Assembly: GCF_006345805.1 (NCBI RefSeq)
Contig: NC_043020.1
Span: 5,642,001-5,706,000 of the forward strand
DNA from: Octopus sinensis
Taxonomy: Eukaryota
Direction: 5' to 3'
DNA length: 64,000 nt
The notes under the pieces were generated by a model that worked only from the letters and a program-made list of their open reading frames with translations, made no database searches and was not told the DNA's origin. Positions 4,554-39,042 of the stretch are shown here, piece by piece (the stretch's first letter is position 1; each line of letters starts with the position of its first letter). The position numbers and the translations under genes are program-made.

Positions 4554-5332
4554 ATGGAAAGCACCACTTCATACATGCTCCACTATCGCTGGTCGTTCAA
4601 CCCAATGTACCATATCAATCAAACATTTGAGATAATAATTTTGTTTCCCATAGTTTTCTTCAACCTCCTCATAAGTTATTTGTATTTTCAATTACCCAGC
4701 ATTATGAAATTATACCAATATGTTTGCAGCGAGCCTTGCCTCAGGCGACATTGGATACGGAATCTCAGCCTTGATACCAACAATCATAGCAAAATTCTCT
4801 AATAGTGCCTCGAGATCTCTTTGTATTTTAACATTTTCATCAAACTTCCTTTCGGCCTGCTTGTCTCTCAGCAATCTAACGTTGCTCTCCATTGAACGGT
4901 ACATTGCAGTAGTTATGTCTTTTAAATATAACATTTACGTAACAAAGCAGACGACCAGCGCCGCCATTTTGCTTTCTTGGTTGGGAAATATATTGGTTAC
5001 GGTCGTCATATCGCTTTACAGTGGACGGGAGAATGTGACGATTTGTTCATTTGAAAACATTTACCCAAAATGGATCAACTCGTTCATTTTTATTACCGGC
5101 TTTCTGTATATTATCATAACTTTTATGTAAAGGTGATGTGGATAGCAAGGAAACAGTTGCGAGCGATTGGCCCCAATACAAAAACAGACAATTCAGAAGC
5201 AGACGAGATAAACAAGGCAAAGATGATGATGCTAATTTTCGGCTTTTTTATATGTTGCTATTTTCCTATCGTGACTTTAAAAGTCATAGAATATGTCCAA
5301 ATCTAACGAGAAGTATAACGTCCTCAAATGTC
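4554..5332 (+). pseudogene. Disrupted paralogue of the class A GPCR at 10027-10947
   Basis: Collinear with 10027-10812 (ASLASGDI, LSIERYIAV, KMMMLIFG, ICCYFP). It is split over several frames, has a deletion near TM5, and is cut off before TM7 by a (TACA)/(CA) tract. Confidence 0.85.
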
Positions 5333-5401
<69 letters not shown>

Positions 5402-5413
5402 ACACACACACAC

Positions 5414-5471
<58 letters not shown>

Positions 5472-9266: not shown

Positions 9267-9709
9267 AAATGTCTACAAAATTTCTAAAGTATGCTGTTGC
9301 CTTATTGTTAACTCAGTTTAATTAGTTTTAACAATCACTGTCTTGGTTTCAGTTCCTTGTGATTGAATTTCAAAAAAGGAAACGAAAAGAAACCAGGCGT
9401 ATGTGTGAGCGAGAGAGTATATGTGTGTGCGTGCGTTTGTATGTTAGTGTGTGTGTGTCAGTTTAAGAAATATGAAACGCTGTCTGTGATGGCTGCGGTC
9501 GGGCTTAACAAAACCCATCAAAAACTAATTAAACACAATAAATCTTATTAAATTTCAAAGAACATTATATAGATTGTTCGCGAACTTTATTTCGAAACGA
9601 TTAAGCAGGTATTTCAATGAAATTTCTCTCGAATTATTGGACTCAGGTGTTTCAGGCCTAATTGATTGCTTCATTCTGGAGTAAGAATGGACAAATTAGA
9701 TATTTTGCA

Positions 9710-9780
<71 letters not shown>

Positions 9781-9921
9781 ATCATGTCTGAACATGTAAA
9801 TCTATGTATCTACGCGTACACGTACAAGTTCTCTCTCTCTCTACCCGTTTTTCGATATATATATATATATATATACGTACATGCATACATACATACATAC
9901 ATACATACATACATACATACA

Positions 9922-9957
<36 letters not shown>

Positions 9958-10026
9958 TGTATATATATACACGCACATAGACACATATATATAAAGGAGA
10001 GAGTCTTTCTACTGATATGCACAAAT

Positions 10027-10947
10027 ATGGAAAACGCCACTGTATACTCGCTCGACTTTCGCTGTTCGTTCCATCCAATGCATTATATCTGTTTAACATT
10101 TGAAATAATATCTTTGTTTCCCATAGTTTTCTTCAACCTCCTCACAGTTATTTGTATTTTCAAGTACCCCACATTACGAAATTACACCAATATGATTGTA
10201 GCGAGCCTTGCCTCAGGCGACATTGCATACGGAATCTCAGCCTTGATACCAACAATCATAGCAAAATTCTCTAATAGTGCCTCAAGATCGGTTTGTATTT
10301 TAACATTTTCATCAAACTTCCTTTCGGCCTGCTTGTCTCTCAGCAATCTAACGTTGCTCTCCATTGAACGGTACATTGCAGTAGTTATGCCATTTAAATA
10401 TAGCATTTACGTAACAAAGCAGACGACCGGCGCCACCATTTTGCTTGCTTGGGTGGGAAATATATTGCTTACGGCCATCATATCGCTTTACAGCGGACGG
10501 GAGAATGTGACGATTTGTTCGTTTGACAGAATTTACCCAAAATGGATCAACTCGTTCATTTTTATTACCGGTTTTCTGCACATTGCTACAACTGTTTTCT
10601 TTTATGTAAAGGTGATGTGGATAGCAAGGAAACAGTTGCGAACGATTGGCCCCAGTACAAAAACAGACACTTCAGAAGCAGACGAGATAAACAAGGCAAA
10701 GATGATGATGCTAATTTTCGGCCTTTTTATATGTTGCTATTTTCCTGTTGTGGCTTCAAAAGTCATAGAATATATGACCAAATCAAACGAGAGATTTAAA
10801 GTCCTCAGATGTCTCTCAACTTTCTTCATCAAGATCAACTATTTCATAAATTTTTTCGTCTATAATGTCTGCAGTAAACAGTTCCGAAAGGCCACCAAAC
10901 ATTTCTTGTGTTGCAACAAGCTAAGCCTTTCCTCCAATCAACATTGA
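10027..10947 (+). CDS. Single-exon rhodopsin-like (class A) GPCR, 306 aa, orphan or possibly chemosensory
   Basis: Starts MENATVY (N-glycosylation sequon) and has seven hydrophobic segments. Motifs: TM2 SLASGD, TM3 LSIERYIAV (ERY), TM6 FICCYFP, TM7 INFFVY (NPxxY variant), helix 8 SKQFRKA and a CC motif. The ORF-track extension from 9784 is microsatellite. Confidence 0.9.
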   Translation: MENATVYSLDFRCSFHPMHYICLTFEIISLFPIVFFNLLTVICIFKYPTLRNYTNMIVASLASGDIAYGISALIPTIIAKFSNSASRSVCILTFSSNFLSACLSLSNLTLLSIERYIAVVMPFKYSIYVTKQTTGATILLAWVGNILLTAIISLYSGRENVTICSFDRIYPKWINSFIFITGFLHIATTVFFYVKVMWIARKQLRTIGPSTKTDTSEADEINKAKMMMLIFGLFICCYFPVVASKVIEYMTKSNERFKVLRCLSTFFIKINYFINFFVYNVCSKQFRKATKHFLCCNKLSLSSNQH

Positions 10948-13755: not shown

Positions 13756-15457
13756 TATTTCTTTACTGCCCCCCAAGGGGCTAAACATAGAGGGGACAAA
13801 CAAGGACAGACAAACGGATTAAGTCGATTATATCGACCCCAGTGCGTAACTGGTACTTAATTTATCGACCCCGAAAGGATTGAAAGGCAAAGTCGACCTC
13901 GGCGGAATTTGAACTAAAAACGCTATGGCAGACGAAATACCTATTTCTTTACTACCACACAAGGGCAAACATAGAGGGGACAAACAAGGACAGACAAACG
14001 GATTAAGTCGATTATATCGACCCCAGTGCGTAACTGGTACTTAATTTATCGACCCCGAAAGGATTGAAAGGCAAAGTCGACCTCGGCGGAATTTGAACTA
14101 AAAACGCTATGGCAGAGACGAAATACCTATTTCTTTACTACCCACAAGGGGCTAAACATAGAGGGGACAAACAAGGACAGACAAACGGATTAAGTCGATT
14201 ATATCGACCCCAGTGCGTAACTGGTACTTAATTTATCGACCCCGAAAGGATTGAAAGGCAAAGTCGACCTCGGCGGAATTTGAACTAAAAACGCTATGGC
14301 AGACGAAATACCTATTTCTTTACTACCCACAAGGGGCTAAACATAGAGGGGACAAACAAGGACAGACAAACGGATTAAGTCGATTATATCGACCCCAGTG
14401 CGTAACTGGTACTTAATTTATCGACCCCGAAAGGATTGAAAGGCAAAGTCGACCTCGGCGGAATTTGAACTAAAAACGCTATGGCAGACGAAATACCTAT
14501 TTCTTTACTACCCACAAGGGGCTAAACATAGAGGGGACAAACAAGGACAGACAAACGGATTAAGTCGATTATATCGACTCCCAGGGCGTAACTGGTACTT
14601 AATATATCGACCCCGAAAGGATTGAAAGGCAAAGTCGACCTCGGCGGAATTTGAACTAAAAACGCTATGGCAGACGAAATACCTATTTCTTTACTACCCA
14701 CAAGGGGCTAAACATAGAGGGGACAAACAAGGACAGACAAACGGATTAAGTCGATTATATCGACCCCAGTGCGTAACTGGTACTTAATTTATCGACCCCG
14801 AAGGATTGAAAGGCAAAGTCGACCTCGGCGGAATTTGAACTAAAAACGCTATGGCAGACGAAATACCTATTTCTTTACTACCCACAAGGGGCTAAACATA
14901 GAGGGGACAAACAAGGACAGACAACGGATTAAGTCGATTATATCGACCCCAGTGCGTAACTGGTACTTAATTTATCGACCCCGAAAGGATTGAAAGGCAA
15001 AGTCGACCTCGGCGGAATTTGAACTAAAAACGCTATGGCAGACGAAATACCTATTTCTTTACTACCACAAGGGGCTAAACATAGAGGGGACAAACGGAAT
15101 TAAGTCGATTATATCGACCCCAGTGCGTAACTGGTACTTAATTTATCGACCCCGAAAGGATGAAATGAAGGCAAAGTCGACTCGGCGGAATTTGAACTAA
15201 AAACGCTATGGCAGACGAAATACCTATTTCTTTACTACCCACAAGGGGCTAAACATAGAGGGGACAAACAAGGACAGACAAACGGATTAAGTCGATTATA
15301 TCGACCCCAGTGCGTAACTGGTACTTAATTTATCGACCCCGAAAGGATTGAAAGGCAAAGTCGACCTCGGCGGAATTTGAACTCAGAACGTAGCGACAGA
15401 CGAAATACGGCTACGCATTTCGCCCGGCGTGCTAACGTTTCTGCCAGCTCACCGCCC
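13756..15457 (-). repeat. Tandem array of nine SINE-M tail-B units (~185-bp period) with a single 5' head
   Basis: The head ggcggtgagctggcagaaacgttagcacgccggg occurs only at ~15457-15410. The units are joined as ...gggtagtaaagaaata|ggtatttcgtctgcc. Confidence 0.92.
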
Positions 15458-15462
15458 TTATA

Positions 15463-17370: not shown

Positions 17371-17891
17371 GTTTCTTTACTACCCACAAGGGGCTAAACA
17401 TAGAGGGGGACAAACAAGGACAGACAAACGGATTAAGTCGATTACATCGACCCCAGTGCGTGACTGGTACTTAATTTATCGACCCCCAAAAAGATGAAAG
17501 GCAAAGTCGACCCCGGGGGAATTTGAACTCAGAACGTAACGGCAGACGAAATACGTATTTCTTTACTACCCACAAGGGGCTAAACACAGAGAGGACAAAC
17601 AAGGACAGACAAAGGGATTAAGTCGATTATATCGACCCCAGTGCGTAACTGGTACTTATTTAATCGACTCTGAAAGGATGAAAGGCAAAGTCGACCTCGG
17701 CGGAATTTGAACTCAGAACGTAGCGGCAGACGAAATACCTATTTCTTTACTACCCACAAGGGGCTAAACACAGAGGGGACAAACAAGGACAGACAAACGG
17801 ATTAAGTCGATTATATCGACTCCAGAGCGTAACTAGTACTTATTTAATCGACCCCGAAAGGATGAAAGGCAAAGTCGACCTCGGCGGAATG
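17371..17891 (-). repeat. Three tandem SINE-M tail-B units
   Basis: Junctions gtagtaaagaaata|ggtatttcg (~17740) and gtagtaaagaaata|cgtatttcg (~17555). Confidence 0.9.
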
Positions 17892-19739: not shown

Positions 19740-19970
19740 TATTTCTTTATTACCCACAAGGGGCTAAACACAGAGAGGACAAACAAGGACAGACAAACGG
19801 ATTAAGTCTATTATATCGACCCCAGTGCGTAACTGGTACTTATTTAATCGACCCCGAAGGGATGAAAGGCAAAGTCGACCTCGGCGGAATTTGAACTCAG
19901 AACGCAACCGCAGACGAAATACCGCTTAGTATTTCGCCCGGCGTGCTAACGTTTCTGCCAGCTCGCCGCC
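19740..19970 (-). mobile_element. Full-length SINE-M tail-B monomer with a 16-bp TSD, nested in an older SINE (~19581-20070, + strand)
   Basis: Runs from ggcggcgagctggcagaaacg to gggtaataaagaaata on the minus strand. The direct repeat tatttcgaaggtccag lies at 19722-19737 and 19971-19986. Confidence 0.9.
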
Positions 19971-21506: not shown

Positions 21507-22226
21507 ATTCTAGGCACAAGGCCCGTATTTTTGGAGAAGGAACCAGTTGATTAGATCGACCCAGTACGTAACTGGTTCTTACTTTATCGAACCCGAAAGG
21601 ATGAATGGCAAAGCCGACCTCAGCGGAATTTGAACTTAGAACGTAAAGACAGACGAAATACCTATTTCTTTACTACCCACAGAGGAGACAAACAAGGACA
21701 GACAAACGGATTAAGTCGATTACATCGACCCCAGTGCGTAACTGGTACTTAATTTATCGACTCCGAAAGGATGAAAGGCAAAGTCGACCTCGGCGGAATT
21801 TGAACTCAGAACGTAAAGACAGACGAAATACCTATTTCTTTACTACCCACAAGGGGCTAAACATAGAGGGGACAAACAAGGACAGACAAACGGATTAAGT
21901 CGATTATATCGACCCCAGTGCGTAACTGGTACTTAATTTATCGACTCCGAAAGGATGAAAGGCAAAGCCGACCTCGGCGGAATTTGAACTCAGACCGTAA
22001 CAGCAGACGAAATGCCGCTAAGCATTTCGCCCGACGTGTTAACGATTCTTATTTCTGTATTGCCCACAAGGGGCTAAACTCAGAGGGGACGAACAAGGAC
22101 AGACAAACGGATTAAGTCAATTATATCGACCCCAGTGCGTAACTTGAACTTAGAACGTAACGGCAGATGAAATGCCCGGTAAGCATTTCGCCCGGCGTGC
22201 TAACTATTCTGCCAGCTCGCCGCCTT
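21507..22226 (-). repeat. Nested SINE-M cluster: three tail-B units followed by one tail-A unit
   Basis: Junctions gggcaatacagaaata|agaatcgttaacacg (~22050) and gtagtaaagaaata|ggtatttcg (~21832 and ~21662). The terminal unit ends in the tail-A sequence gggccttgtgcctag. Confidence 0.88.
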
Positions 22227-22545
22227 ATTATTGAAAAAATATTACTTGTCAAGTTATAATCTTTTCTACTAAAAGCACAAGACCTAAAATTTCGGGGGAA
22301 AGGGGCTAAGTCGATTACATGCAGCCCATTGTTTAAGGAGCCCGAAGGGATGAAATGCAAAGTCGATTTAGGTGGAATTTGAACTCAGAACGTAACAGAA
22401 GGACAAAATGCCGTTAAAGAAGGACAATCTTGTCAAGTTATAATAAAAAACAAACCTGTTGCCCTATCATCCCCCTTTTTTTGTGGTTCTTTTCTTGTAA
22501 CCTGGGTGTTTGTTTGTTGTTTTTTTTATAATAATTCATCTTTTA

Positions 22546-22567
22546 GGATGCGAGCTGGCAGAAACGT
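22546..22567 (+). mobile_element. 5' stub of the SINE-M copy interrupted by the ORF1 array
   Basis: ggatgcgagctggcagaaacgt matches the SINE head ggcggcgagctggcagaaacgt. The SINE resumes at 38297. Confidence 0.8.
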
Positions 22568-22753
22568 CACCACTTCGTTTGACGTCGGTCGTGTTTTTTT
22601 ACGCTCTGTAAAATTCGGTAAAAAAGAACAAAAAGCGTTGTTGTTGTTGTGGAAATTCTGAACGGCGTTGACGCGGTTTCGCGTTTCGCTCGTTCAGCGC
22701 GTTAAACTTTTTTCTGTTTTGGCGGCCGTTTTCGGTCTGTCAGACAGAAGGAA

Positions 22754-24160
22754 ATGGACTATGAGTCTCTAACAGACTTGTCCACGACAGATGAGGAACT
22801 GGAACAGGCAATTGCAGTGAAGCTGATGGAGGAAAAGGCTGGAGTTTTCGAGTCTTTATCAGACTCGCCTACGTCTGAGAAGGAGCTAGAAATGGCAGCG
22901 AGGAATTTGGAAAAAAGCTGAGTTATACTTATGCCGGTGTAACCCGAAGCGGAAGAGAAAGGGGTCGACTTGGCCAAGCTACCAAGTTACCAGAAACACA
23001 TGAAAAAGGAAGCGGTGAGGTGGAACTATCACCGACACCCGGAGAAAAGAATGGTATGATAAGAGGACCATTGTTTACAGGGTGTGCGCAACGAAAGGAG
23101 AGGGTAGAAGTTGTATCCATGGAATGGATAGAGGAAGCCCTGCGAAGAACTGAGGAGGAAATAAATTTTCTGACTCGAGGATCCAAGTACGGGACCGTAG
23201 TTGTGCACTTTAAAAGTGAATCTGCAGCGAGGAAGATGGCAGCGAAGGCGGTGAAGTCGGAAAAGGTAACACTGTTACCTACGTATTTAAACAGGAGGAT
23301 TACACGAATAAGGGTGGAGGGAGTGCCACCAACGTGGAGGCAGAATGGATTGTGGCGGCTGTGATCAGCGGCCACGAGGACGAAGTGGATATTCTCCATG
23401 CCTCGGTTAAGTCCGAGGGCTGGAGAGGCGTAACAGTGGAGCTGAACGTACAGGCAGAGACCGAGGTACTGGTGGACCTGACGGAAAGCATCAGACTGGG
23501 AGAAGTGATCATGAGAGTGTGGGTGGAGGGCAGGGCTCCACGTTGTTACAAGTGTGGCCTGAGGGGTCACATAAGAGCCTTCTGCCCTCCCCCAGGGAAA
23601 GAAATGGATCCCGAACCAGAGAGAGAGAAGCAGAAACCAGAGGAGAAGGAAACAGAGGAAGAGAATACACAGAAATGGAAGGAAGCTGGAAGTAAGAGGA
23701 AGAGAAGAATACGTGGAAAAAAAATATATGAACTCCAATCCACCCCAAAACCACCCACGCCCTCTGAGTCCCACCCTATCCATGCAGACATTGAACCCAC
23801 CCCTCCCCCCCAACAAGAAAACAAAAGAAAAAAAAGAATACACACACACAAGAGATTGAATCGATATCAGGATCAGGCCGTACATTTGTACTATGACTGA
23901 ACAGAAGAAGTTAAAAGTCTAATGGAAGAGTATAAATGGTATGATGTTGGTGAGACTAGGTATGCTGTGATTGAAAAGAAGAACATAGGTGACTTTATGG
24001 TGATGTGTGAATGCGAGAATTGGGAGGTGAAAGATATAAGAATGAGCGATGAATTCGTGGAAAATATGGATGAGTATTTCGGAGTAAGAATGGATATGGA
24101 TTTGTTCGTATTGGCAAGGAACATTCAAGTGACTATGAAAAACAAAGGACAGGTAGTTGA
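22754..24160 (+). CDS. ORF1-like CCHC zinc-knuckle protein, unit 1 (several frameshifts)
   Basis: Collinear with unit 8 and retains CYKCGLRGHIRAFC. Many indels fall in homopolymer runs. Confidence 0.55.
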
Positions 24161-24505
24161 TGCTGACGGACGGGGCCGTTGGTATCGCTTTCATTTAATT
24201 ATCATTTTTTCGTTTAACAATTCATGTTCATAAAGTTTAATTATAATGTTATGTCCCCATGTTTCTTAGTGTCCCTTTCTGTGTCGCCCCTAGTGGGTAA
24301 TAAAGAAATAAGAAACGCCACCACTTCGTTTGACGTCGGTCGTGTTTTTTTACGCGCTCTGTAAAATTCGGTAAAAAAGAACAAAAAGCGTGGTTGTTGT
24401 TGTGGAAATTCTGAACGGCGTTGACGCGGTTTCGCGTTTCGCTCGTTCAGCGCGTTAACTTTTTTCTGTTTTGGCGGCCGTTTTCGGTCTGTCAGACAGA
24501 AGGAA

Positions 24506-25904
24506 ATGGACTATGAGTCTCTAACAGACTTGTCCACGACAGATGAGGAACTGGAACAGGCAATTGCAGTGAAGCTGATGGAGGAAAAGGCTGGATTTTC
24601 GAGTCTTTATCAGACTTGTCTGAGAAGGAGCTAGAAATGGCAGCAAGGAAATTGGAAAAGAAGCTGAGTTATACTTATGCCGTGTAACCAAGAAGGCGGA
24701 GAGAAAGGGGTCGACTTGGCCAAGCTACCAAGTTACCAGAAACACATGAAAAAGGAAAGCGGTGAGGTGGAACTATCACCGACACCCAGGAGAAAAGAAT
24801 GGTATGATAAGAGGACCATTGTTTACAGGGTGTTCGCAAACGAAAGGAAGAGGGTAGAAGTTGTAACCATGGAATGGATAGAGGAAGCCCTGCGAAGAAC
24901 TGAGGAGGAAATAAATTTTCTGACTCGAGGATCCAAGTATGGGACCGTAGTTGTGCATTTTAAAAGTGAATCTGCAGCGAGGAAGATGGCAGCGAAGGCG
25001 GTGAAGTCGGAAAAGGTAACACTGTTACCTACGTATTTAAACAGGAGGATTACACGAATAAGGGTGGAGGGTGCCACCAAACGTGGAGGCAGAATGGATT
25101 GTGGCGGCTGTGATCAGCGGCCACGAGGACGAAGTGGATATTCCCATGCCTCGGTTAAGTCCGAGGGCTGGAGAGGCGTAACAGTGGAGCTGAACGTACA
25201 GGCAGAGACCGAGGTACTGGTGGACCTGACGGAAAGCATCAGACTGGGAGAAGTGATCATGAGAGTGTGGGTGGAGGGCAGGGCTCCACGTTGTTACAAG
25301 TGTGGCCTGAGGGGTCACATAAGAGCCTTCTGCCCTCCCCCAGGGAAAGAAATGGATCCCGAACCAGAGAGAGAGAAGCAGAAACCAAGGAGAAGGAAAC
25401 AGAGGAAGAGAATACACAGAAATGGAAGGAAGCTGGAAGTAAGAGGAAGAGAAGAATACGTGGAAAAGAAAATAATATGGAACTCCAATCCACCCCAAAA
25501 CCACCCACGCCTCTGAGTCCCACCCTATCCATGCAGACATTGAACCCACCCGCTCCCCCCCAACAAGAAAACAAAAGAAAAAAAAGAATACACACACACA
25601 AGAGATTGAAATCGATATCAGGCCGTACATTTGTACTATGACTGAACAGAAAGAAGTTAAAAGTCTAATGGAAGAGTATAAATGGTATGATGTTGGTGAG
25701 ACTAGGTATGCTGTGATTGAAAAGAAGAACATAGGTGACTTTATGGTGATGTGTGAATGCGAGAATTGGGAGGTGAAAGATATAAGAATGAGCGATGAAT
25801 TCGTGGAAAATATGGATGAGTATTTCGGAGTAAGATGGATATGGAATTTGTTCGTATTGGCAAGGAACATTCAGTGACTATGAAAAACAAAGACAGGTAA
25901 GTGA
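24506..25904 (+). CDS. ORF1-like CCHC protein, unit 2 (frameshifted)
   Basis: Collinear with unit 8; fragments 24677-25516, 25267-25641 and 25638-25877 in the ORF track. Confidence 0.55.
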
Positions 25905-26247
25905 TGCTGACGGACGGGGCCGTTGGTATCGCTTTCATTTAATCATTTTTTCGTTTAACAATCCATGTTCATAAAGTTTAATTATAATGTTATATGTCCC
26001 CATGTTTCTTAGTGTCCCTTTCTGTGTCGCCCCTAGTGGGTAATAAAGAAATAAGAAACGCCACCACTTCGTTTGACGTCGGTCGTGTTTTTTTACGCTC
26101 TGTAAAATTCGGTAAAAAAGAACAAAAAGCGTGGTTGTTGTTGTGGAAATTCTGAACGGCGTTGACGCGGTTTCGCGTTTCGCTCGTTCAGCGCGTTAAA
26201 CTTTTTTCTGTTTTGGCGGCAGTTTTCGGTCTGTCAGACAGAAGGAA

Positions 26248-27650
26248 ATGGACTATGAGTCTCTAACAGACTTGTCCACGACAGATGAGGAACTGGAACA
26301 GGCAATTGCAGTGAAGCTGATGGAGGAAAAGGCTGGAGTTTTCGAGTCTTTATCAGACTTGTCTGAGAAGGAGCTAGAAATGGCAGCAAGGAATTCGGAA
26401 AAGAAGCTGAGTTATACTTATGCCGGTGTAACCAAGAAGGCGGAAGAGAAAGGGGTCGACTTGGCCAAGCTACCAAGTTACCAGAAACACATGAAAAAGG
26501 AAAGCGGTGAGGTGGAACTATCACCGACACCCAGGAGAAAAGAATGGTATGATAAGAGGACCATTGTTTACAGGGTGTTCGCAAACGAAAGGAAGAGGGT
26601 AGAAGTTGTAACCATGGAATGGATAGAGGAAGCCCTGCGAAGAACTGAGGAGGAAATAAATTTTCTGACTCGAGGATCCAAGTATGGGACCGTAGTTGTG
26701 CATTTTAAAAGTGAATCTGCAGCGAGGAAGATGGCGGCGAAGGCGGTGAAGTCGGAAAAGGTAACACTGTTACCTACGTATTTAAACAGGAGGATTACAC
26801 GAATAAGGGTGGAGGGAGTGCCACCAAATGTGGAGGCAGAATGGATTGTGGCGGCTGTGATCAGCGGCCACGAGGACGAAGTAGATATTCTCCATGCCTC
26901 GGTTAAGTCCGAGGGCTGGAGAGGCGTAACAGTGGAGCTGAACGTACAGGCAGAGACCGAGGTACTGGTGGACCTGACGGAAAGCATCAGACTGGGAGAA
27001 GTGATCATGAGAGTGTGGGTGGAGGGCAGGGCTCCACGTTGTTACAAGTGTGGCTGAGGGGTCACATAAGAGCCTTCTGCCCTCCCCCAGGGAAAGAAAT
27101 GGATCCGAACCAGAGAGAGAGAAGCAAAACCAGAGGAGAAGGAAACAGAGGAAGAGAATACACAGAAATGGAAGGGCTGGAAGTAAGAGGAAGAGAAGAA
27201 TACGTGAAAAGAAAATAATATGGAACTCCAATCCACCCCAAAACCACCCACGCCTCTGAGTCCCACCCTACCCATGCAGACATTGAACCCACCCGCTCCC
27301 CCCCAACAAGAAAACAAAAGAAAAAAAAGAATACACACACACAAGAGATTGAAAACGATATCAGGATGTACATTTGTACTATGACTGAACAGAAAGAAGT
27401 TAAAAGTCTAATGGAAGAGTATAAATGGTATGATGTTGGTGAGACTAGGTATGCTGTGATTGAAAAGAAGAACATAGGTGAGTTTATGGGGAGGTGTGAA
27501 AGGAAGAATTGGGAGGTGAAAGATATAAGAATGAGCGATGAATTCGTGGAAAACATGGATGAGTATTTCGGAGTAAGAATGGATATGGAATTTATTCGTA
27601 TTGGCAAAGAACATTCAAGTGACTATGAAAAACAAAGGACAGGTAAGTGA
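26248..27650 (+). CDS. ORF1-like CCHC protein, unit 3 (frameshifted after aa 269)
   Basis: ORFs 26248-27057 and 27366-27650 give the consensus N- and C-termini (MDYESL... and ...EKQRTGK*). Confidence 0.6.
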
Positions 27651-27992
27651 TGCTGACGGACGGGGCCGTTGGTATCGCTTTCATTTAATCATTTTTTCGT
27701 TTAACAATTCATGTTCATAAAGTTTAATTATAATGTTATATGTCCCCATGTTTCTTAGTGTCCTTTCTGTGTCGCCCCTAGTGGGTAATAAAGAAATAAG
27801 AAACGCCACCACTTCGTTTGACGTCGGTGTGTTTTTTTCGGCTCCTGAAAATTCGGTAAAAAAGAACAAAAAAGCGTTGTTGTTGTTGTGGAAATTCTGA
27901 ACGGCGTTGACGCGGTTTCGCGTTTCGCTCGTTCAGCGCGTTAAACTTTTTTCTGTTTTGGCGGCCGTTTTCGGTCTGTCAGACAGAAGGAA

Positions 27993-29396
27993 ATGGACTA
28001 TGAGTCTCTAACAGACTTGTCCACGACAGATGAGGAACTGGAACAGGCAATTGCAGTGAAGCTGATGGAGGAAAAGGCTGGAGTTTTCGAGTCTTTATCA
28101 GACTCGCCTACGTCTGAGAAGGAGCTAGAAATGGCAGCGAGGAATTTGGAAAGAAGCTGAGTTATACTTATGCCGGTGTAACCAAGAAGGCGGAAGAGAA
28201 AGGGGTCGACTTGGCCAAGCTACCAAGTTACCAGAACACATGAAAAAGGAAAGCGGTGAGGTGGAACTATCACCGACACCCAGGAGAAAAGAATGGTATG
28301 ATAAGAGGACCATTGTTTACAGGGTGTGCGCAAACGAAAGGAAGAGGGTAGAAGTTGTATCCATGGAATGGATAGAGGAAGCCCTGCGAAGAACTGAGGA
28401 GGAAATAAATTTTCTGACTCGAGGATCCAAGTACGGGACCGTAGTTGTGCACTTTAAAAGTGAATCTGCAGCGAGAAGATGGCAGCGAAGGCGGTGAAGT
28501 CGGAAAAGGTAACACTGTTACCTACGTATTTAAACAGGAGGATTACACGAATAAGGGTGGAGGGAGTGCCACCAAACGTGGAGGCAGAATGGATTGTGGC
28601 GGCTGTGATCAGCGGCCACGAGGACGAAGTGGATATTCTCCATGCCTCGGTTAAGTCCGAGGGCTGGAGAGGCGTAACAGTGGAGCTGAACGTACAGGCA
28701 GAGACCGAGGTACTGGTGGACCTGACGGAAAGCATCAGACTGGGAGAAGTGATCATGAGAGTGTGGGTGGAGGGCAGGGCTCCACGTTGTTACAAGTGTG
28801 GCCTGAGGGGTCACATAAGAGCCTTCTGCCCTCCCCCAGGGAAAGAATGGATCCCGAACCAGAGAGAGAGAAGCAGAAACCAGAGGAGAAGGAAACAGGA
28901 GAGAATCACAGAGAATGGAAGGAAGCTGGAAGTAAGAGGAAGAGAAGAATACGTGGAAAAGAAAATAATATGGAACTCCAATCCACCCCAAAACCACCCA
29001 CGCCCTCTGAGTCCCACCCTACCCATGCAGACATTGAACCCACCCCTCCCCCCAACAAAAAACAAAAGAAAAAAAAGAATACAAACACACAAGAGATTGA
29101 AAACGATATCAGGATGTACATTTGTACTATGACTGAACAGAAAGAAGTTAAAAGTCTAATGGAAGAGTATAAATGGTATGATTTGGTGAGACTAGGTATG
29201 CTGTGATTGAAAAGAAGAACATAGGTGAGTTTATGGGAAGGTGAAATGCGAGAATTGGGAGGTGAAAGATATAAGAATGAGCGATGAATTCGTGGAAAAT
29301 ATGGATGAGTATTTCGGAGTAAGAATGGATATGGAATTTGTTCGTATTGGCAAGGAACATTCAAGTGACTATGAAAAACAAAGGACAGGTAAGTGA
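27993..29396 (+). CDS. ORF1-like CCHC protein, unit 4 (frameshifted)
   Basis: Collinear with unit 8; fragments 28240-28497, 28479-29132 and 28763-29206. Confidence 0.55.
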
Positions 29397-29730
29397 TGCT
29401 GACGGACGGGGCCGTTGGTATCGCTTTCATTTAATCATTTTTTCGTTTAACAATTCATGTTCATAAAGTTTAATTATAATGTTCTATGTCCCCATGTCTT
29501 TTGGTGTCCCCTTCTGTGTCGCCCCTAGTGGGTAATAAAGAAATCACCACTTCGTTTGACGTCGGTTGTGTTTTTTTCGGCTCCTGAAAATTCGGTAAAA
29601 AAGAACAAAAAGCGGGGTTGTTGTTGTGGAAATTCTGAACGGCGTTGACGCGGTTTCGCGTTTCGCTCGTTCAGCGCGTTAAACTTTCTTCTGTTTTGGC
29701 GGCCGTTTTCGGTCTGTCAGACAGAAGGAA

Positions 29731-31136
29731 ATGGACTATGAGTCTCTAACAGACTTGTCCACGACAGATGAGGAACTGGAACAGGCAATTGCAGTGAAGC
29801 TGATGGAGGAAAAGCTGGAGATTTCGAGTCTTTATCAGACTTGTCTGCGTCTGAGAAGGAGCTAGAAATGGCAGCAAGGAAATTGGAAAAGAAGCTGAGT
29901 TATACTTATGCCGGTGTAACCAAGAAGGCGGAAGAGAAAGGGGTCGACTTGGCCAAACTACCAAGTTACCAGAAACACATGAAAAAGGAAAGCGGTGAGG
30001 TGGAACTATCACCGACACCAGGAGAAAAGAATGGTATGATAAGAGGACCATTGTTTACAGGGTGTTCGCAACGAAGGAAGAGGGTAGAAGTTGTAACCAT
30101 GGAATGGATAGAGGAAGCCCTGCGAAGAACTGAGGAGGAAATAAATTTTCTGACTCGAGGATCCAAGTATGGGACCGTAGTTGTGCATTTTAAAAGTGAA
30201 TCTGCAGCGAGGAAGATGGCGGCGAAGGCGGTGAAGTCGGAAAAGGTAACACTGTTACCTACGTATTTAAACAGGAGGATTACACGAATAAGGGTGGAGG
30301 GAGTGCCACCAAACGTGGAGGCAGAATGGATTGTGGCGGCTGTGATCAGCGCCACGAGGACGAAGTAGATATTCTCCATGCCTCGGTTAAGTCCGAGGGC
30401 TGGAGAGGCGTAACAGTGGAGCTGAACGTACAGGCAGAGACCGAGGTACTGGTGGACCTGACGGAAAGCATCAGACTGGGAGAAGTGATCATGAGAGTGT
30501 GGGTGGAGGGCAGGGCTCCACGTTGTTACAAGTGTGGCCTGAGGGGTCACATAAGAGCCTTCTGCCCTCCCCCAGGGAAAGAAATGGATCCCGAACCAGA
30601 GAGAGAGAAGCAGAAACCAGAGGAGAAGGAAACAGAGGAAGAGAATACACAGAAATGGAAGGAAGCTGGAAGTAAGAGGAAGAGAAGAATACGTGGAAAA
30701 GAAAATAATATGGAACTCCAATCCACCCCAAAACCACCCACGCCCTCTGAGTCCCACCCTATCCATGCAGACATTGAACCCACCCGCTCCCCCCCAACAA
30801 GAAAACAAAAGAAAAAAAAGAATACACACACACAAGAGATTGAAATCGATATCAGCCGTACATTTGTACTATGACTGAACAGAAAGAAGTAAAAGTCTAA
30901 TGGAAGAGTATAAATGGTATGATGTTGGTGAGACTAGGTATGCTGTGATTGAAAAGAAGAACATAGGTGACTTTATGGTGATGTGTGAATGCGAGAATTG
31001 GGAGGTGAAAGATATAAAGAGCGATGAATTCGTGGAAAATATGGATGAGTATTTCGGAGTAAGAATGGATATGGAATTTGTTCGTATTGGCAAGGAACAT
31101 TCAAGTGACTATGAAAAACAAAGGACAGGTAAGTGA
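29731..31136 (+). CDS. ORF1-like CCHC protein, unit 5 (frameshifted)
   Basis: Fragments 29841-30368, 30326-30874 and 30900-31136. Confidence 0.55.
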
Positions 31137-31479
31137 TGCTGACGGACGGGGCCGTTGGTATCGCTTTCATTTAATCATTTTTTCGTTTACAATTCATGTT
31201 CATAAAGTTTAATTATAATGTTATATGTCCCCATGTTTCTTAGTGTCCTTTCTGTGTCGCCCCTAGTGGGTAATAAAGAAATAGAAACGTCACCACTACT
31301 TCGTTTGACGTCGGTTGTGTTTTTTTCGGCTCCTGAAAATTCGGTAAAAAAGAACAAAAAGCGTGGTTGTTGTTGTGGAAACTCTGAACGGCGTTGACGC
31401 GGTTTCGCGTTTCGCTCGTTCAGCGCGTTAAACTTTTTTCTGTTTTGGCGGCCGTTTTCGGTCTGTCAGACAGAAGGAA

Positions 31480-32888
31480 ATGGACTATGAGTCTCTAACA
31501 GACTTGTCCACGACAGATGAGGAACTGGAACAGGCAATTGCAGTGAAGCTGATGGAGGAAAAGGCTGGAGTTTTCGAGTCTTTATCAGACTTGTCTGAGA
31601 AGGAGCTAGAAATGGCAGCAAGGAATTCGGAAAAGAAGCTGAGTTATACTTATGCCGGTGTAACCAAGAAGGCGGAAGAGAAAGGGGTCGACTTGGCCAA
31701 GCTACCAAGTTACCAGAAACACATGAAAAAGGAAAGCGGTGAGGTGGAACTATCACCGACACCCAGGAGAAAAGAATGGTACGATAAGAGGACCATTGTT
31801 TACAGGGTGTTCGCAAACGAAAGGAAGAGGTAGAAGTTGTAACCATGGAATGGATAGAGGAAGCCCTGCGAAGAACTGAGGAGGAAATAAATTTTCTGAC
31901 TCGAGGATCCAAGTATGGGACCGTAGTTGTGCATTTTAAAAGTGAATCTGCAGCGAGGAAGATGGCGGCGAAGGCGGTGAAGTCGGAAAAGGTAACACTG
32001 TTACCTACGTATTTAAACAGGAGGATTACACGAATAAGGGTGGAGGGAGTGCCACCAAACGTGGAGGCAGAATGGATTGTGGCGGCTGTATCAGCGGCCA
32101 CGAGGACGAAGTAGATATTCTCCATGCCGGTTAAGTCTGAGGGCTGGAGAGGCGTAACAGTGGAGCTGAACGTACAGGCAGAGACCGAGGTACTGGTGGA
32201 CCTGACGGAAAGCATCAGACTGGGAGAAGTGATCATGAGAGTGTGGGTGGAGGGCAGGGCTCCACGTTGTTACAAGTGTGGCCTGAGGGGTCACATAAGA
32301 GCCTTCTGCCCTCCCCCAGGAAAGAAATGGATCCCGAACCAGAGAGAGAAGCAGAAACCAGAGGAGAAGGAAACAGAGGAAGAGAATACACAGAAATGGA
32401 AGGAAGCTGGAAGTAAGAGGAAGAGAAGAATACGTGGAAAAGAAAATAATATGGAACTCCAATCCACCCCAAAACCACCCACGCCCTCTGAGTCCCACCC
32501 TATCCATGCAGACATTGAACCCACCCCACCCGCTCCCCCCCAACAAGAAAACAAAAGAAAAAAAAGAATACACACACACAAGAATTGAATCGATATCATA
32601 TCAGGCCGTACATTTGTACTATGACTGAACAAAAGAAGTTAAAAGTCTAATGGAGAGTATAAATGGTATGATGTTGGTGAGACTAGGTATGCTGTGATTG
32701 AAAAGAAGAACATAGGTGACTTTATGGTGATGTGTGAATGCGAGAATTGGGAGGTGAAAGATATAAGAATGAGCGATGAATTCGTGGAAAATATGGATGA
32801 GTATTTCGGAGTAAGAATGGATATGGAATTTGTTCGTATTGGCAAGGAACATTCAAGTGACTATGAAAAACAAAGGACAGGTAAGTGA
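31480..32888 (+). CDS. ORF1-like CCHC protein, unit 6 (frameshifted)
   Basis: Fragments 31480-31833, 31845-32114, 32124-32588 and 32694-32888. Confidence 0.55.
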
Positions 32889-33235
32889 TGCTGACGGACG
32901 GGGCCGTTGGTATCGCTTTCATTTATAATCATTTTTTCGTTTAACAATTCATGTTCATAAAGTTTAATTATAATGTTATATGTCCCCATGTTTCTTAGTG
33001 TCCCTTTCTGTGTCGCCCCTAGTGGTAATAAAGAAATAAGAAACGCACCACTTCGTTTGACGTCGGTCGTGTTTTTTTACGCTCTGTAAAATTCGGTAAA
33101 AAAGAACAAAAAGCGTGGTTGTTGTTGTGGAAATTCTGAACGGCGTTGACGCGGTTTCGCGTTTCGCTCGTTCAGCGCGTTAAACTTTTTTCTTTTTTGT
33201 TTTGCGGCCGTTTTCGGTCTGTCAGACAGAAGGAA

Positions 33236-34637
33236 ATGGACTATGAGTCTCTAACAGACTTGTCCACGACAGATGAGGAACTGGAACAGGCAATTGCAGT
33301 GAAGCTGATGGAGGAAAAGGCTGGAGTTTTCGAGTCTTTATCAGACTTGTCTGAGAAGGAGCTAGAAATGGCAGCAAGGAAATTGGAAAAGAAGCTGAGT
33401 TATACTTATGCCGGTGTAACCAAGAAGGCGGAAGAGAAAGGGGTCGACTTGGCCAAGCTACCAAGTTACCAGAAACACATGAAAAAGGAAAGCGGTGAGG
33501 TGGAACTATCACCGACACCCAGGAGAAAAGAATGGTATGATAAGAGGACCATTGTTTACAGGGTGTGCGCAAACGAAAGGAAGAGGGTAGAAGTTGTATC
33601 CATGGAATGGATAGAGGAAGCCCTGCGAAGAACTGAGGAGGAAATAAATTTTCTGACTCGAGGATCCAAGTACGGGACCGTAGTTGTGCACTTTAAAAGT
33701 GAATCTGCAGCGAGGAAGATGGCAGCGAAGGCGGTGAAGTCGGAAAAGGTAACACTGTTACCTACGTATTTAAACAGGAGGATTACACGAATAAGGGTGG
33801 AGGGAGTGCCACCAAACGTGGAGGCAGAATGGATTGTGGCGGCTGTGATCAGCGGCCACGAGGACGAAGTAGATATTCTCCATGCCTCGGTTAAGTCCGA
33901 GGGCTGGAGAGGCGTAACAGTGGAGCTGAACGTACAGGCAGAGACCGAGGTACTGGTGGACCTGACGGAAAGCATCAGACTGGGAGAAGTGATCATGAGA
34001 GTGTGGGTGGAGGGCAGGGCTCCACGTTGTTACAAGTGTGGCCTGAGGGGTCACATAAGAGCCTTCTGCCCTCCCCCAGGGAAAGAAATGGATTCCGAAC
34101 CAGAGAGAGAGAAGCAGAAACCAGAGGAGAAGGAAACAGAGAAGAGAATACACAGAAATGGAAGGAAGCTGGAAGTAAGAGGAAGAGAAGAATACGTGGA
34201 AAAGAAAACAATATGGAACTCCAATCCACCCCAAAACCACCCACGCCCTCTGAGTCCCACCCTACCCATGCAGACATTGAACCCACCCGCTCCCCCCCAA
34301 CAAGAAAACAAAAGAAAAAAAAGAATACACACACACAAGAGATTGAAAACGATATCAGGATGTACATTTGTACTATGACTGAACAGAAAGAAGTTAAAAG
34401 TCTAATGGAAGAGTATAAATGGTATGATGTTGGTGAGACTAGGTATGCTGTGATTGAAAAAAGAACATAGGTGAGTTTATGGTGTGTGAAAGGAAGAATT
34501 GGGAGGTGAAAGATATAAGAATGAGCGATGAATTCGTGGAAAAGGATGAGTATTTCGGAGTAAGAATGGATATGGAATTTGTTCGTATTGGCAAAGAACA
34601 TTCAAGTGACTATGAAAAACAAAGGACAGGTAAGTGA
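33236..34637 (+). CDS. ORF1-like CCHC protein, unit 7 (frameshifts in the 3' third)
   Basis: Open from MDYESL through the knuckle to EEKETE (~34140), then shifts frame. Confidence 0.65.
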
Positions 34638-34979
34638 TGCTGACGGACGGGGCCGTTGGTATCGCTTTCATTTAATCATTTTTTCGTTTAACACATTCAT
34701 GTTCATAAAGTTTAATTATAATGTTATATGTCCCCATGTTTCTTAGTGTCCCTTTCTGTGTCGCCCCTAGTGGGTAATAAAGAAATAAGAAACGTCACCA
34801 CTTCGTTTGACGTCGGTGTGTTTTTTTCGGCTCCTGAAAATTCGGTAAAAAAGAACAAAAAGCGTGTTGTTGTTGTGGAAATTCTGAACGGCGTTGACGC
34901 GGTTTCGCGTTTCGCTCGTTCAGCGCGTTAAACTTTTTTCTGTTTTGGCGGCCGTTTTCGGTCTGTCAGACAGAAGGAA

Positions 34980-36396
34980 ATGGACTATGAGTCTCTAACA
35001 GACTTGTCCACGACAGATGAGGAACTGGAACAGGCAATTGCAGTGAAGCTGATGGAGGAAAAGGCTGGAGTTTTCGAGTCTTTATCAGACTCGCCTACGT
35101 CTGAGAAGGAGCTAGAAATGGCAGCGAGGAATTTGGAAAAGAAGCTGAGTTATACTTATGCCGGTGTAACCAAGAAGGCGGAAGAGAAAGGGGTCGACTT
35201 GGCCAAGCTACCAAGTTACCAGAAACACATGAAAAAGGAAAGCGGTGAGGTGGAACTATCACCGACACCCAGGAGAAAAGAATGGTATGATAAGAGGACC
35301 ATTGTTTACAGGGTGTGCGCAAACGAAAGGAAGAGGGTAGAAGTTGTATCCATGGAATGGATAGAGGAAGCCCTGCGAAGAACTGAGGAGGAAATAAATT
35401 TTCTGACTCGAGGATCCAAGTACGGGACCGTAGTTGTGCACTTTAAAAGTGAATCTGCAGCGAGGAAGATGGCAGCGAAGGCGGTGAAGTCGGAAAAGGT
35501 AACACTGTTACCTACGTATTTAAACAGGAGGATTACACGAATAAGGGTGGAGGGAGTGCCACCAAACGTGGAGGCAGAATGGATTGTGGCGGCTGTGATC
35601 AGCGGCCACGAGGACGAAGTAGATATTCTCCATGCCTCGGTTAAGTCCGAGGGCTGGAGAGGCGTAACAGTGGAGCTGAACGTACAGGCAGAGACCGAGG
35701 TACTGGTGGACCTGACGGAAAGCATCAGACTGGGAGAAGTGATCATGAGAGTGTGGGTGGAGGGCAGGGCTCCACGTTGTTACAAGTGTGGCCTGAGGGG
35801 TCACATAAGAGCCTTCTGCCCTCCCCCAGGGAAAGAAATGGATCCCGAACCAGAGAGAGAGAAGCAGAAACCAGAGGAGAAGGAAACAGAGGAAGAGAAT
35901 ACACAGAAATGGAAGGAAGCTGGAAGTAAGAGGAAGAGAAGAATACGTGGAAAAGAAAATAATATGGAACTCCAATCCACCCCAAAACCACCCACGCCCT
36001 CTGAGTCCCACCCTATCCATGCAGACATTGAACCCACCCGCTCCCCCCCAACAAGAAAACAAAAGAAAAAAAAGAATACACACACACAAGAGATTGAAAA
36101 CGATATCAGGATGTACATTTGTACTATGACTGAACAGAAAGAAGTTAAAAGTCTAATGGAAGAGTATAAATGGTATGATGTTGGTGAGACTAGGTATGCT
36201 GTGATTGAAAAGAAGAACATAGGTGAGTTTATGGGGATGTGTGAAAGCGAAGAATTGGGAGGTGAAAGATATAAGAATGAGCGATGAATTCGTGGAAAAC
36301 ATGGATGAGTATTTCGGAGTAAGAATGGATATGGAATTTATTCGTATTGGCAAAGAACATTCAAGTGACTATGAAAAACAAAGGACAGGTAAGTGA
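34980..36396 (+). CDS. ORF1-like (Tx1/L1-type) RRM + CCHC zinc-knuckle protein, unit 8, the best copy; ~471 aa after removing one extra base near 36248
   Basis: Acidic N-terminus, SYTYAGV motif, RRM-like YGTVVVHFKSESAARKM and RIRVEGVPPNVEAEWI, then RVWVEGRAPR-CYKCGLRGHIRAFC (CX2CX4HX4C). A basic/Pro linker (KRKRR) precedes an ~90-aa C-terminal region. ATG to consensus TGA is 1417 nt, i.e. 472 codons plus 1. Confidence 0.8.
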
Positions 36397-36739
36397 TGCT
36401 GACGGACGGGGCCGTTGGTATCGCTTTCATTTAATCATTTTTTCGTTTAACAATTCATGTTCATAAAATTTAATTATAATGTTATATGTCCCCATGTTTC
36501 TTAGTGTCCCTTTCTGTGTCGCCCCTAGTGGGTAATAAAGAAATAAGAAACGTTAGCACGTCGTTTGACGTCGGTTGTGTTTTTTTCGGCTCCTGAAAAT
36601 TCGGTAAAAAAGAACAAAAAGCGTGGTTGTTGTTGTGGAAATTCTGAACGGCGTTGACGCGGTTTCGCGTTTCGCTCGTTCAGCGCGTTAAACTTTTTTC
36701 TGTTTTGGCGGCCGTTTTCGGTCTGTCAGACAGAAGGAA

Positions 36740-38148
36740 ATGGACTATGAGTCTCTAACAGACTTGTCCACGACAGATGAGGAACTGGAACAGGCAATTG
36801 CAGTGAAGCTGATGGAGGAAAAGGCTGGAGTTTTCGAGTCTTTATCAGACTCGCCTACGTCTGAGAAGGAGCTAGAAATGGCAGCGAGGAATTTGGAAAA
36901 GAAGCTGAGTTATACTTATGCCGGTGTAACCAAGAAGGCGGAAGAGAAAGGGGTCGACTTGGCCAAGCTACCAAGTTACCAGAAACACATGAAAAAGGAA
37001 AGCGGTGAGGTGGAACTATCACCGACACCCAGGAGAAAAGAATGGTATGATAAGAGGACCATTGTTTACAGGGTGTGCGCAAACGAAAGGAAGAGGGTAG
37101 AAGTTGTATCCATGGAATGGATAGAGGAAGCCCTGCGAACTGAGGAGGAAATAAATTTTCTGACTCGAGGATCCAAGTACGGGACCGTAGTTGTGCACTT
37201 TAAAAGTGAATCTGCAGCGAGGAAGATGGCAGCGAAGGCGGTGAAGTCGGAAAAGGTAACACTGTTACCTACGTATTTAAACAGGAGGATTACACGAATA
37301 AGGGTGGAGGGAGTGCCACCAAACGTGGAGGCAGAATGGATTGTGGCGGCTGTGATCAGCGGCCACGAGGACGAAGTAGATATTCTCCATGCCTCGGTTA
37401 AGTCTGAGGGCTGGAGAGGCGTAACAGTGGAGCTGAACGTACAGGCAGAGACCGAGGTACTGGTGGACCTGACGGAAAGCATCAGACTGGGAGAAGTGAT
37501 CATGAGAGTGTGGGTGGAGGGCAGGGCTCCACGTTTGTTACAGTGTGGCCTGAGGGGTCACATAAGAGCCTTCTGCCCTCCCCCAGGGAAAGAAATGGAT
37601 CCCGAACCAGAGAGAGAGAAGCAGAAACCAGAGGAGAAGGAAACAGAGGAAGAGAATACACAGAAATGGAAGGAAGCTGGAAGTAAGAGGAAGAGAAGAA
37701 TACGTGGAAAAGAAAATAATATGGAACTCCAATCCACCCCAAAACCACCCACGCCCTCTGAGTCCCACCCTATCCATGCAGACATTGAACCCACCCGCTC
37801 CCCCAACAAGAAAACAAAAGAAAAAAAAGAATACACACACACAGAGATTGAAAACGATATCAGGATGTACATTTGTACTATGACTGAACAGAAAGAAGTT
37901 AAAAGTCTAATGGAAGAGTATAAATGGTATGATGTTGGTGAGACTAGGTATGCTGTGATTGAAAAGAAGAACATAGGTGAGTTTATGGGGAGGTGTGAAA
38001 GGAAGAATGGGAGGTGAAAGATATAAGAATGAGCGATGAATTCGTGGAAAACATGGATGAGTATTTCGGAGTAAGAATGGATATGGAATTTATTCGTATT
38101 GGCAAAGAACATTCAAGTGACTATGAAAAACAAAGGACAGGTAAGTGA
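36740..38148 (+). CDS. ORF1-like protein, unit 9 (425 aa open, late frameshift, knuckle locally shifted)
   Basis: ORF 36740-38017. Compensating indels change RCYKC to RLLQC. Confidence 0.7.
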
Positions 38149-38296
38149 TGCTGACGGACGGGGCCGTTGGTATCGCTTCATTTAATCATTTTTTCGTTTA
38201 ACAATTCATGTTCATAAAATTTAATTATAATGTTATATGTCCCCATGTTTCTTAGTGTCCCTTTCTGTGTCGCCCCTAGTGGGTAATAAAGAAATA

Positions 38297-38870
38297 AGAA
38301 ACGTTAGCACGCCGGGTGAAATGCTTAGTGGTATTTCGTCTGCCATTACGGTCTGAGTTCAAATTCCGCCGAGGTCGACTTCGCCTTTCATCCTTTCGGG
38401 GTCGATAAATTAAGTACCAGTTATGCACTGGTGTCGATATAATCAACTTAATCCGTTTGTCTGTCCTTGTTTGTCCTCTCTGTGTTTGGCCCCTTGTGGG
38501 TAGTAAAGAAATAGAAATTTCTGACTGCCGTTACGTTGTGAGTTCAAATTCCGCCGAGGTCGACCTTGCCTTTCATCCTTTCGGCGGTCGATTAAATAAG
38601 TACCAGTTACGCACTGGGGTCGATGTAATCGACTTAATCCGTTTGTCTGTCTTCGTTTGTCCTCTCTATGTTTAGCTCCTTGTGGCTAGTAAAGAAATAG
38701 GTATTTCGTCTGCCGTTACGTTCTAAGTTCAAATTTCGCCTAGGTCGACTTTGCCTTTCATCTTTTCAGGATCGATAAATTAAGTACCAGCTAAAAATTT
38801 GGGTCGATGTAATCGACTTACCCTCGCCCTCGTAACTGTGGACCTTGTAACAAAAAATTTAAAGCCAATA
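38297..38870 (+). mobile_element. Remainder of the interrupted SINE-M: two tail-B units followed by a tail-A unit
   Basis: agaaacgttagcacgccgggtgaaatgc, B-box gagttcaaattcc and the SINE core. Tail-B ends lie at ~38513 and ~38699, and a tail-A-like end (gaccttgtaacaaaaaattt) at ~38860. Confidence 0.88.
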
Positions 38871-39042
38871 TAAAGATAGATTATGAGCGAGTTGAAAGAG
38901 AGGGAGGGGACTGAGTCTGCTTCCCTCCACCCCTGTTCCTTGGAATAGCTCAAAAATATGGAATTACTCTCGAAGCTGCTGTTTCAAGCTCTAATAAATA
39001 GACAAACTACTAGAAAAAAAGAAGTCGTTTTCACAGCTCAAA

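Follow-up and report, generated by a model that had tools for sequence, protein, structure and literature searches.

Tail-B SINEs of Octopus sinensis abut two fixed positions in the heads of their own older copies

About half of the ~10^5 tail-B copies of a SINE in the Octopus sinensis genome sit at one spot within older copies of the same family. A pattern search of the whole 2.72 Gb genome returned 122,006 exact tail-B ends. The head sequence directly following starts at position 52 (site B) in 23,699 of these and at position 19 (site A) in 1,575. Reversed control patterns gave 0, 0 and 1 matches, those for the two junctions being 0, so the fixed junctions, which are observed genome-wide, are beyond chance. 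Insertion of these SINEs into older copies by a Tx1-like machinery is well supported and very probable, taking together two accounts of how the target is chosen. The one we lean towards holds that Tx1-like LINE endonucleases with a loose motif, combined with a feedback from pairing and annealing, stack SINEs at their own head.

Two sites in the SINE head

The SINE was identified in a 64,000-nt stretch of contig NC_043020.1 (the window). It is 236 nt long and has two alternative 3' ends, tail-A and tail-B, the latter ending in GGGYARTAAAGAAATA; head positions are numbered on the window copy at 15460-15225. A- and B-box-like words were recognized by eye in the tRNA-like head, and ARAGORN finds no tRNA in the window. 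With this head, a shared body and alternative tails, the element presumably resembles the octopus OR1/OR2 CORE-SINEs of Ohshima and Okada (1994). Four stacked units occupy 21507-22224 on the minus strand; they and the other relevant features are as follows.

13756..15460 (-): site-B array of nine units, with private substitutions common to units 2-9; C52 head, yet G at 8/8 junctions
17372..17890 (-): site-B cluster of three units; first base C at one junction (17555); last tail is tail-B
19740..19970 (-): full-length tail-B SINE at a dispersed location, flanked by a ~17-19 bp target duplication
21507..21662 (-): terminal unit of the four-unit stack, positions 52-171 plus tail-A; presumed original target copy
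21663..21832 (-): SINE unit that begins at position 52 (site B), tail-B of T-AGTA type with a 14-nt deletion; has the T67/T68 alleles of the target
21833..22049 (-): SINE unit that begins at head position 19 (site A), tail-B of T-AGTA type; tail abuts site B
22050..22224 (-): first SINE unit of the stack, tail-B of C-AATA type; head positions 5-76, internal deletion of 77-133, then body; tail abuts site A
22544..22559 (+): remnant of a SINE head, ending at position 18; it is the left side of the site-A target that the ORF1-only array interrupts
22560..38296 (+): ORF1-only non-autonomous elements, nine in tandem and 1.75 kb each, inserted at site A so that they separate positions 18 and 19 in the head of a single SINE
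38297-38513 (+): remainder of the interrupted SINE from position 19, right of the ORF1-only array
38514-38699 (+): site-B unit within the cluster 38297..38860
From 38700 (+): terminal unit of the cluster 38297..38860, with a degenerate tail-A

All the junctions claimed in the original prediction are present in the window. The tail GGGCAATACAGAAATA, ending at 22050 on the minus strand, adjoins head position 19 (22049). AGTA tails adjoin head position 52 at 21833/21832, 21663/21662, 17740/17739 and 17556/17555 (first base C), at each of the 8 junctions in the 13756..15460 array, as well as at 38699/38700 (+) and, in degenerate form, at 38513/38514. The two fixed sites that had been proposed are confirmed, although their spacing is 33 nt (head positions 19 and 52) and not 35. 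As had been claimed, the last unit is tail-A in the clusters at 21507 and 38297, but it is tail-B in those at 13.7-15.4 kb and 17.4-17.9 kb.

Junctions were also aligned from DNA fetched at 278 SINE loci, most of them picked for A or B junctions and with loci at fetch edges dropped; of the 212 junctions, 185 start at head positions 50-56, 26 at 17-22 and 1 elsewhere. In an unchosen sample, the first 30 tails of contig C1 with mismatches allowed, 15 were at B, 1 at A and 14 dispersed, and no other SINE position served as target.

Tail types were counted by hand in the first 100 matches listed per search on contig C1, where rows from one array are not independent. The tails at A were CAATA 72, CAGTA 15, TAATA 8 and TAGTA 5; those at B were TAGTA 84, TAATA 14, CAGTA 1 and CAATA 1; and those overall were TAGTA 58, TAATA 21, CAATA 15 and CAGTA 6. 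The association between tail variant and site that had been predicted is upheld by this contingency check, with aata in 80 of the first 100 tails listed at A and 15 of the first 100 at B (odds ratio 23). As a marker of the site, aata/agta is linked, but the C or T ahead of it (GGGC/GGGT) separates the sites better (C in 87 of the first 100 listed at A; odds ratio 328). The link is graded over the four tail types, B:A use being estimated after scaling at 242 for TAGTA, 25 for TAATA, 3.9 for CAGTA and 0.46 for CAATA. C tails make up 1,438 of the 23,699 site-B junctions genome-wide, which exceeds the 2/100 of the listed sample. Subfamily age or source-copy lineage can explain such a gradient without tail-specific recognition.

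Age order of stacked units and the 5' join

The proposal that tail-B copies entered an older tail-A SINE agrees with the divergence of the units. Young terminal tail-A units differ from their own majority sequence by 8.8% and the unit upstream by 4.8%, the terminal unit thus being about twice as diverged as its neighbour (higher in 24 of 30 pairs, lower in 5), a gap that hidden tail-A subfamilies could inflate. None of 52 tail-A ends is followed by site B; one continues into site A, and another into a head that is complete and separate. Both results contradict a single ancestral dimer transposing as a unit, the alternative named in the original prediction, and the units lack the common age and fixed pairing with which the halves of a dimeric (complex) SINE move together. 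In 85 all-B arrays a T tail precedes a C tail 18 times and the reverse holds 6 times (p=0.02), even though 30 loci had been picked for C tails upstream of B. This order, with tail-A last, is what successive entry of new copies into the rebuilt site of the first unit would produce.

Multimers might also be made at the RNA level or be mobile as a unit, from a dimeric master or by a jump of the RT from an RNA cut at position 52 to the tail of another RNA. Site B is the 3' edge of a 4-nt loop in a long predicted head hairpin (z=-2.8), most terminal tail-A units are of one subfamily, and one duplication flanks whole stacks, all of which would suit such an origin. It is nevertheless largely refuted, and we consider it very improbable: the units of a stack differ in age and are ordered, tail-A is never internal before B, the upstream units come from many haplotypes, protein-coding elements also occupy site A, and at one locus (L025) the B junction leads into 19 nt that were copied from the target. 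The predicted hairpin could be relevant to DNA or to RNA.

Rare variants of the downstream unit, sought upstream in 54 site-B dimers, were found at chance level (1/44, 0/52, 2/60, 1/38, 1/30, 1/14), so the dimers are not duplications; such sharing is widespread in arrays of five or more units, so those arrays grew locally. Long arrays are thus partly the product of local duplication besides insertion, and in the window the private substitutions common to units 2-9 of the array at 13756..15460 suggest that it grew largely in this way. The variants common to neighbours in arrays of five or more run along the whole unit, as in a SINE-derived satellite, and satellites of this kind are described in squamates in parts of PMC10702118. 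However, slippage or unequal crossing-over without targeting is refuted as the origin of the stacks, for which it has scarcely any probability left: dimer units hold no rare variants in common, the same boundary base recurs at tens of thousands of loci, and tail-B/tail-A pairs cannot be duplications. It is retained as a secondary process for long arrays.

An empty-site allele was sought at 21330-22340 in contigs of four runs, which were dominated by paralogues, and none spanned the stretch. Over 21670-21805, the contig depth on tail-B was ~15% of that on the SINE body for run X1 but 3.5% for run X10, from another organism, which hints weakly at a lineage-specific tail-B burst.

Dispersed tail-B SINEs are flanked by target duplications of ~15-19 bp, as SINEs with LINE tails are; these were resolved at 28 of 57 ends, mostly as 16-21 nt including overlap with the head. 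At site B the expected 17 bp duplication is mostly lost. The target's T67 occurs in units upstream of B at 2/33 versus 6/106, G stands at the junction in 17 of 21 G47/C52-headed arrays, and the G47/C52 head is found in 8/27 arrays ending in young tail-A and in 0/12 tail-A units that retain their own head. Because T67 is rarely kept, because G47/C52 heads stand over G junctions and because of the difference between 8/27 and 0/12, the incoming copy usually supplies the head alleles, which is the outcome that annealing of full-length cDNA would be expected to have. R2 offers a precedent for such annealing (in parts of PMC3774820). The earlier suggestion that the seamless 5' joins need homology is supported. 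Under the reading we lean towards, the incoming cDNA, being homologous to the target head, would anneal and usually replace the head alleles, leaving a seamless join and a rebuilt site, and the lost duplication at B would be attributable to this replacement.

Long tracts copied from the target were considered as the basis of all joins and rejected: they are absent at B and hold for only a few site-A pairs (L019, L023), where sharing at 53-80 is 7/35 against 0.7 expected. Head divergence was uninformative as a marker of head origin (2.66% versus 2.67%).

The first junction base at B is G in ~94%; non-G bases number 1,531 (A 66, T 22 and C 12 in the first 100 listed). The original prediction had taken a g/c junction base to be target-derived and to track the head. 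This does not hold, since C accounts for ~0.7% of B junctions against C52 in 51 of 211 heads, and the G47/C52 arrays mostly carry G. The rarity of C at the junctions relative to the heads implies that C52 heads are avoided as site-B targets. G47/C52 heads seem almost immune to site-B insertion. SINE positions 47 and 52 co-vary (T/G or G/C) and would close the loop of the head hairpin.

Partner LINEs and the ORF1-only array

Many LINEs identified by a zf-RVT family search of the genome end in the tail-B sequence without poly(A). Their ORF2 is 1,126-1,137 aa long, with endonuclease, RT and zf-RVT domains; in L121 and L231, PF03372 (Exo_endo_phos), PF00078 (RVT_1) and PF13966 (zf-RVT), the domain set of the Tx1 clade, all score above cut-off. 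The ORF1 of L121 gave no family match. The one named relative among 18 homologues is 'Transposon TX1 uncharacterized 149 kDa protein' (26% identity), and the RT tree of the partner LINEs was built without named Tx1 reference sequences. As in the Tx1 clade, the targets include repeats and small RNA genes (U1, the head of a second SINE, site A). The LINEs are referred to as Tx1-like on the basis of their ORF2 layout, their target preference and this one weakly similar protein. The last 40-50 nt of the SINE tail are 80-90% identical to the LINE 3' ends, and the C-AATA SINE tail equals the tail of the L311 group but for one base in ~35. Judged from this shared 3' end, SINE tail-B comes from Tx1-like LINEs.

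Two lineages of LINEs are found at site A, one group having the matching GGGCAATA tail. Two full-length LINEs with unrelated flanks (L128 and L139) begin directly after head position 18, and members of a second lineage (L325 and L326) end at site A; GGGCAATA-tailed copies of the latter group are followed by AGAA in 4 of 5 cases. LINE tails were collected by the zf-RVT family search, a protein search with a divergent ORF2 end, altered-tail patterns, DNA searches with two LINE 3' ends, and flanks. Of 115 distinct LINE tails among the best-scoring matches (best 40-150 candidates per search), 5 are at A, none is at B and none is of the AGTA type GGGTAGTA. At 30/30 site-B loci where the base preceding the tail is altered, the element was a SINE and never a LINE. 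Thus the two partner endonucleases that had been predicted are half shown: a site-A LINE with matching tail exists, but no site-B LINE appears among these best-scoring matches. AGTAAA is a weakened form of AATAAA, which the LINEs keep, so agta probably arose as a change in the SINEs alone.

ORF2 is 98-99% identical in seven LINEs (L121, L122, L133, L123, L132, L139, L128) that have four different downstream flanks. The same residues are found in L121 and L139 in the region of the beta-B6/B5 loop, placed by eye, an endonuclease loop discussed in parts of PMC1950540. Evidence on the independence of the insertions with a GGCATGG flank is mixed: at three long loci the flanks differ by 1.7-3.8% and ORF2 by 0.3-0.7%, and at nine short loci the flanks differ by 1.0% and the 3' UTR by 2.3%. 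In L132, part of the element's own ORF2 comes after the tail.

An abundant sister LINE lineage (L231-L248, L344, L351, L354, L355) inserts at one fixed base in the head of a second SINE family at 15/15 loci, 14 of which continue into the body of that SINE, with a duplication of ~16 bp. At L081:2228-2391, a U1 snRNA gene of full length (Rfam RF00003, 125 bits) directly adjoins the LINE 3' end, possibly representing a U1-targeting lineage; this is one locus only. Other lineages have as fixed flanks a repeat without Rfam match (L082-L089), another repeat (L130 and L171-L192) and a (TC)n microsatellite (L317).

The nine ORF1-only units at 22560..38296 end in GGGTAATAAAGAAATA. Their ORF1 is 29-57% identical to that of the autonomous LINEs, and their last 32 nt are 97% identical to the LINE 3' end. 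The units are 13-55 substitutions apart and mosaic, and a CCHC knuckle motif is visible (zf-CCHC, E=0.067, which is below the Pfam cut-off). The array had been described as using the same site with an aata tail, and its tail is indeed TAATA at site A; that aata means site A is no rule, since SINE TAATA tails choose B ~25 times more often than A. The ORF1-only elements form a distinct family, with frames intact to ~487 aa in tandem arrays on many contigs (window 22560-38296; L033-L048), and in some arrays a local non-SINE duplication is repeated between units. Frameshifts in the window units may be assembly errors.

Target motif, precision of site B and known systems

At dispersed tail-B SINEs, NRTA is found at +1 in 32 of 57 cases against a background of 6%. 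Upstream of the nick, a purine occupies -3 in 23/28 and -2 in 22/28, and G at -1 is rare; this bias must come from the enzyme and not from RNA pairing. A loose motif, RRH|DRWA on the top strand, fits both site A (GGC|AGAA) and site B (AGC|GGTA). Dispersed T tails are followed by GGTA in 8 and TATA in 9 of 35 cases, and C tails by AGAA in 6 and TATA in 7 of 22, mirroring sites B and A. Site-B heads account for 4 among 70 RRH|GGTA and 966 RRH|DRTA sites in 72 kb of flank, and B takes 15 of 30 tails, so that the site is used very roughly 100-fold beyond the prediction of the loose 7-nt motif, an estimate that rests on 4 heads. This excess calls for either an unseen enzyme that recognizes a long sequence at B or a contribution from pairing; of these, pairing of RNA or cDNA with the target is favoured.

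The alternative with dedicated enzymes would have a further, rare or decayed Tx1-like subfamily cut B with long specificity and drive the T-tail wave, the rest being as in the reading we lean towards. Such a site-B enzyme is plausible because the sister lineage is strictly specific for the head of another SINE (15/15 loci), and site A and, at L081, U1 are likewise fixed targets within the group. That C52 heads are almost never targets, that the site-A lineage shares two endonuclease changes (codons 54 and 117), and that the dispersed sites of T tails are unlike those of C tails (G at +1 in 14/35 versus 3/22, p=0.04) also speak for it. Against it stand the lack of any site-B or GGGTAGTA tail among the 115 best-scoring LINE tails, the finding that all 30 altered-base site-B loci are SINEs, the dispersal of half of the tail-B copies at the loose motif, and endonuclease genes that are 98.3-98.6% identical yet have four different flanks. 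On balance we regard a dedicated site-B enzyme as possible but rather doubtful.

Under the reading we lean towards, tail-B SINE RNA would be copied in trans by Tx1-like LINEs (L1 group, APE endonuclease) without poly(A), whose endonucleases would nick at ~RRH|DRWA on the top strand and so give the 15-19 bp duplications. An earlier wave with GGGCAATA tails would have been driven by the same-tailed LINE group preferring AGAA, leading to site A, and a later, larger wave with GGGT tails would have led to site B. Repeated insertion would stack units youngest first, and some stacks would later grow by local duplication. The window SINE copy has no T4 terminator, so its transcripts should continue into the flank. 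Pol III run-on transcripts of copies at B would contain the site-B sequence and could pair with the nicked primer, which is the most likely source of the excess, and capture of homologous cDNA would help site-B insertions to finish. We infer TPRT itself, the two waves, the annealing and, above all, the pairing feedback.

More generally, we tentatively suggest that target choice is partly inherited through RNA, in that poly(A)-less transcripts continue into the flank of their source and this flank pairs with the nicked primer. A test for an RNA-derived flank was non-significant (terminal tail-A units after B lack T67 in 9/31 cases versus 1/12 elsewhere, p=0.24). If true, the SINE, having once inserted into its own head, thereby directed its descendants to that place, which became a self-reinforcing safe haven, and LINE lineages whose endonucleases are nearly the same keep different targets. 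Whether pairing of the RNA flank sets targets is relevant to retrotransposon-based gene insertion tools.

The closest known case is SINEU-3/Tx1-Mar of crocodilians, described in parts of PMC4494074, where a SINE likewise adopts the target preference of a Tx1 LINE for another repeat, and where sequential insertion leads to tandem copies and the duplication is ~16 bp. The target there is a Mariner transposon and the tandem copies sandwich the duplication, whereas here the SINE's own head is the target, the join is seamless, the site is rebuilt, two sites are used, and the behaviour extends to about half of 10^5 copies. The Tx1 clade (Tx1L, Keno, Kibi, Koshi), as treated in the same parts of PMC4494074, has APE endonuclease, RT and zf-RVT in ORF2, a CCHC ORF1 and fixed repeat or snRNA targets; the targets found here include the tRNA-like heads of two SINE families, and near-identical endonucleases have different flanks. 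Precise junctions through target-homologous RNA or cDNA are described for the 5' annealing of R2 (parts of PMC3774820) and for the 3' pairing used by R1Bm and SART1 (parts of PMC7265360). Those are autonomous rDNA or telomere elements, whereas here the homology arises because passenger and target are the same SINE. Squamate SINE satellites and bivalve tandem SINEs also form head-to-tail arrays, the long ones amplified locally (parts of PMC10702118 and PMC11481361); recombination is invoked in those parts, whereas here a fixed insertion site seeds the arrays and most stacks hold 2-4 unrelated units.

Active L1-Tx1 families are listed in a recent annotation of octopus repeats, in which a term search found neither 'target' nor 'nested' (PMC13282606). 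In the literature searched, no report was found of a SINE targeting its own head, nor of these LINE targets; Repbase or the 1994 octopus SINE paper may name the elements. Self-targeting of the SINE head is the new part, a SINE following a Tx1 target being already known. If true, the SINE uses tens of thousands of its own copies as a renewable safe target, stacking rather than striking genes, and the reading of copy number, age and 'satellite' calls in this genome changes. The LINE group provides a natural series of close APE endonucleases with different targets (98% identical pairs), in which shifts of specificity can be tested.

Other features of the window were noted by eye. Broken RTE-type reverse transcriptase fragments lie at 52453-53966 (-) and are a possible relative of the tail-A partner. 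Just past the SINE cluster, 38998-40164 (+) holds a 388 aa ORF for which a membrane anchor is predicted and in which two segments are rich in cysteine and chitin-binding-like. Two genes without introns, at 9700-10947 (+) and 4708-5512 (+), resemble rhodopsin-type GPCRs, the second being frameshifted.
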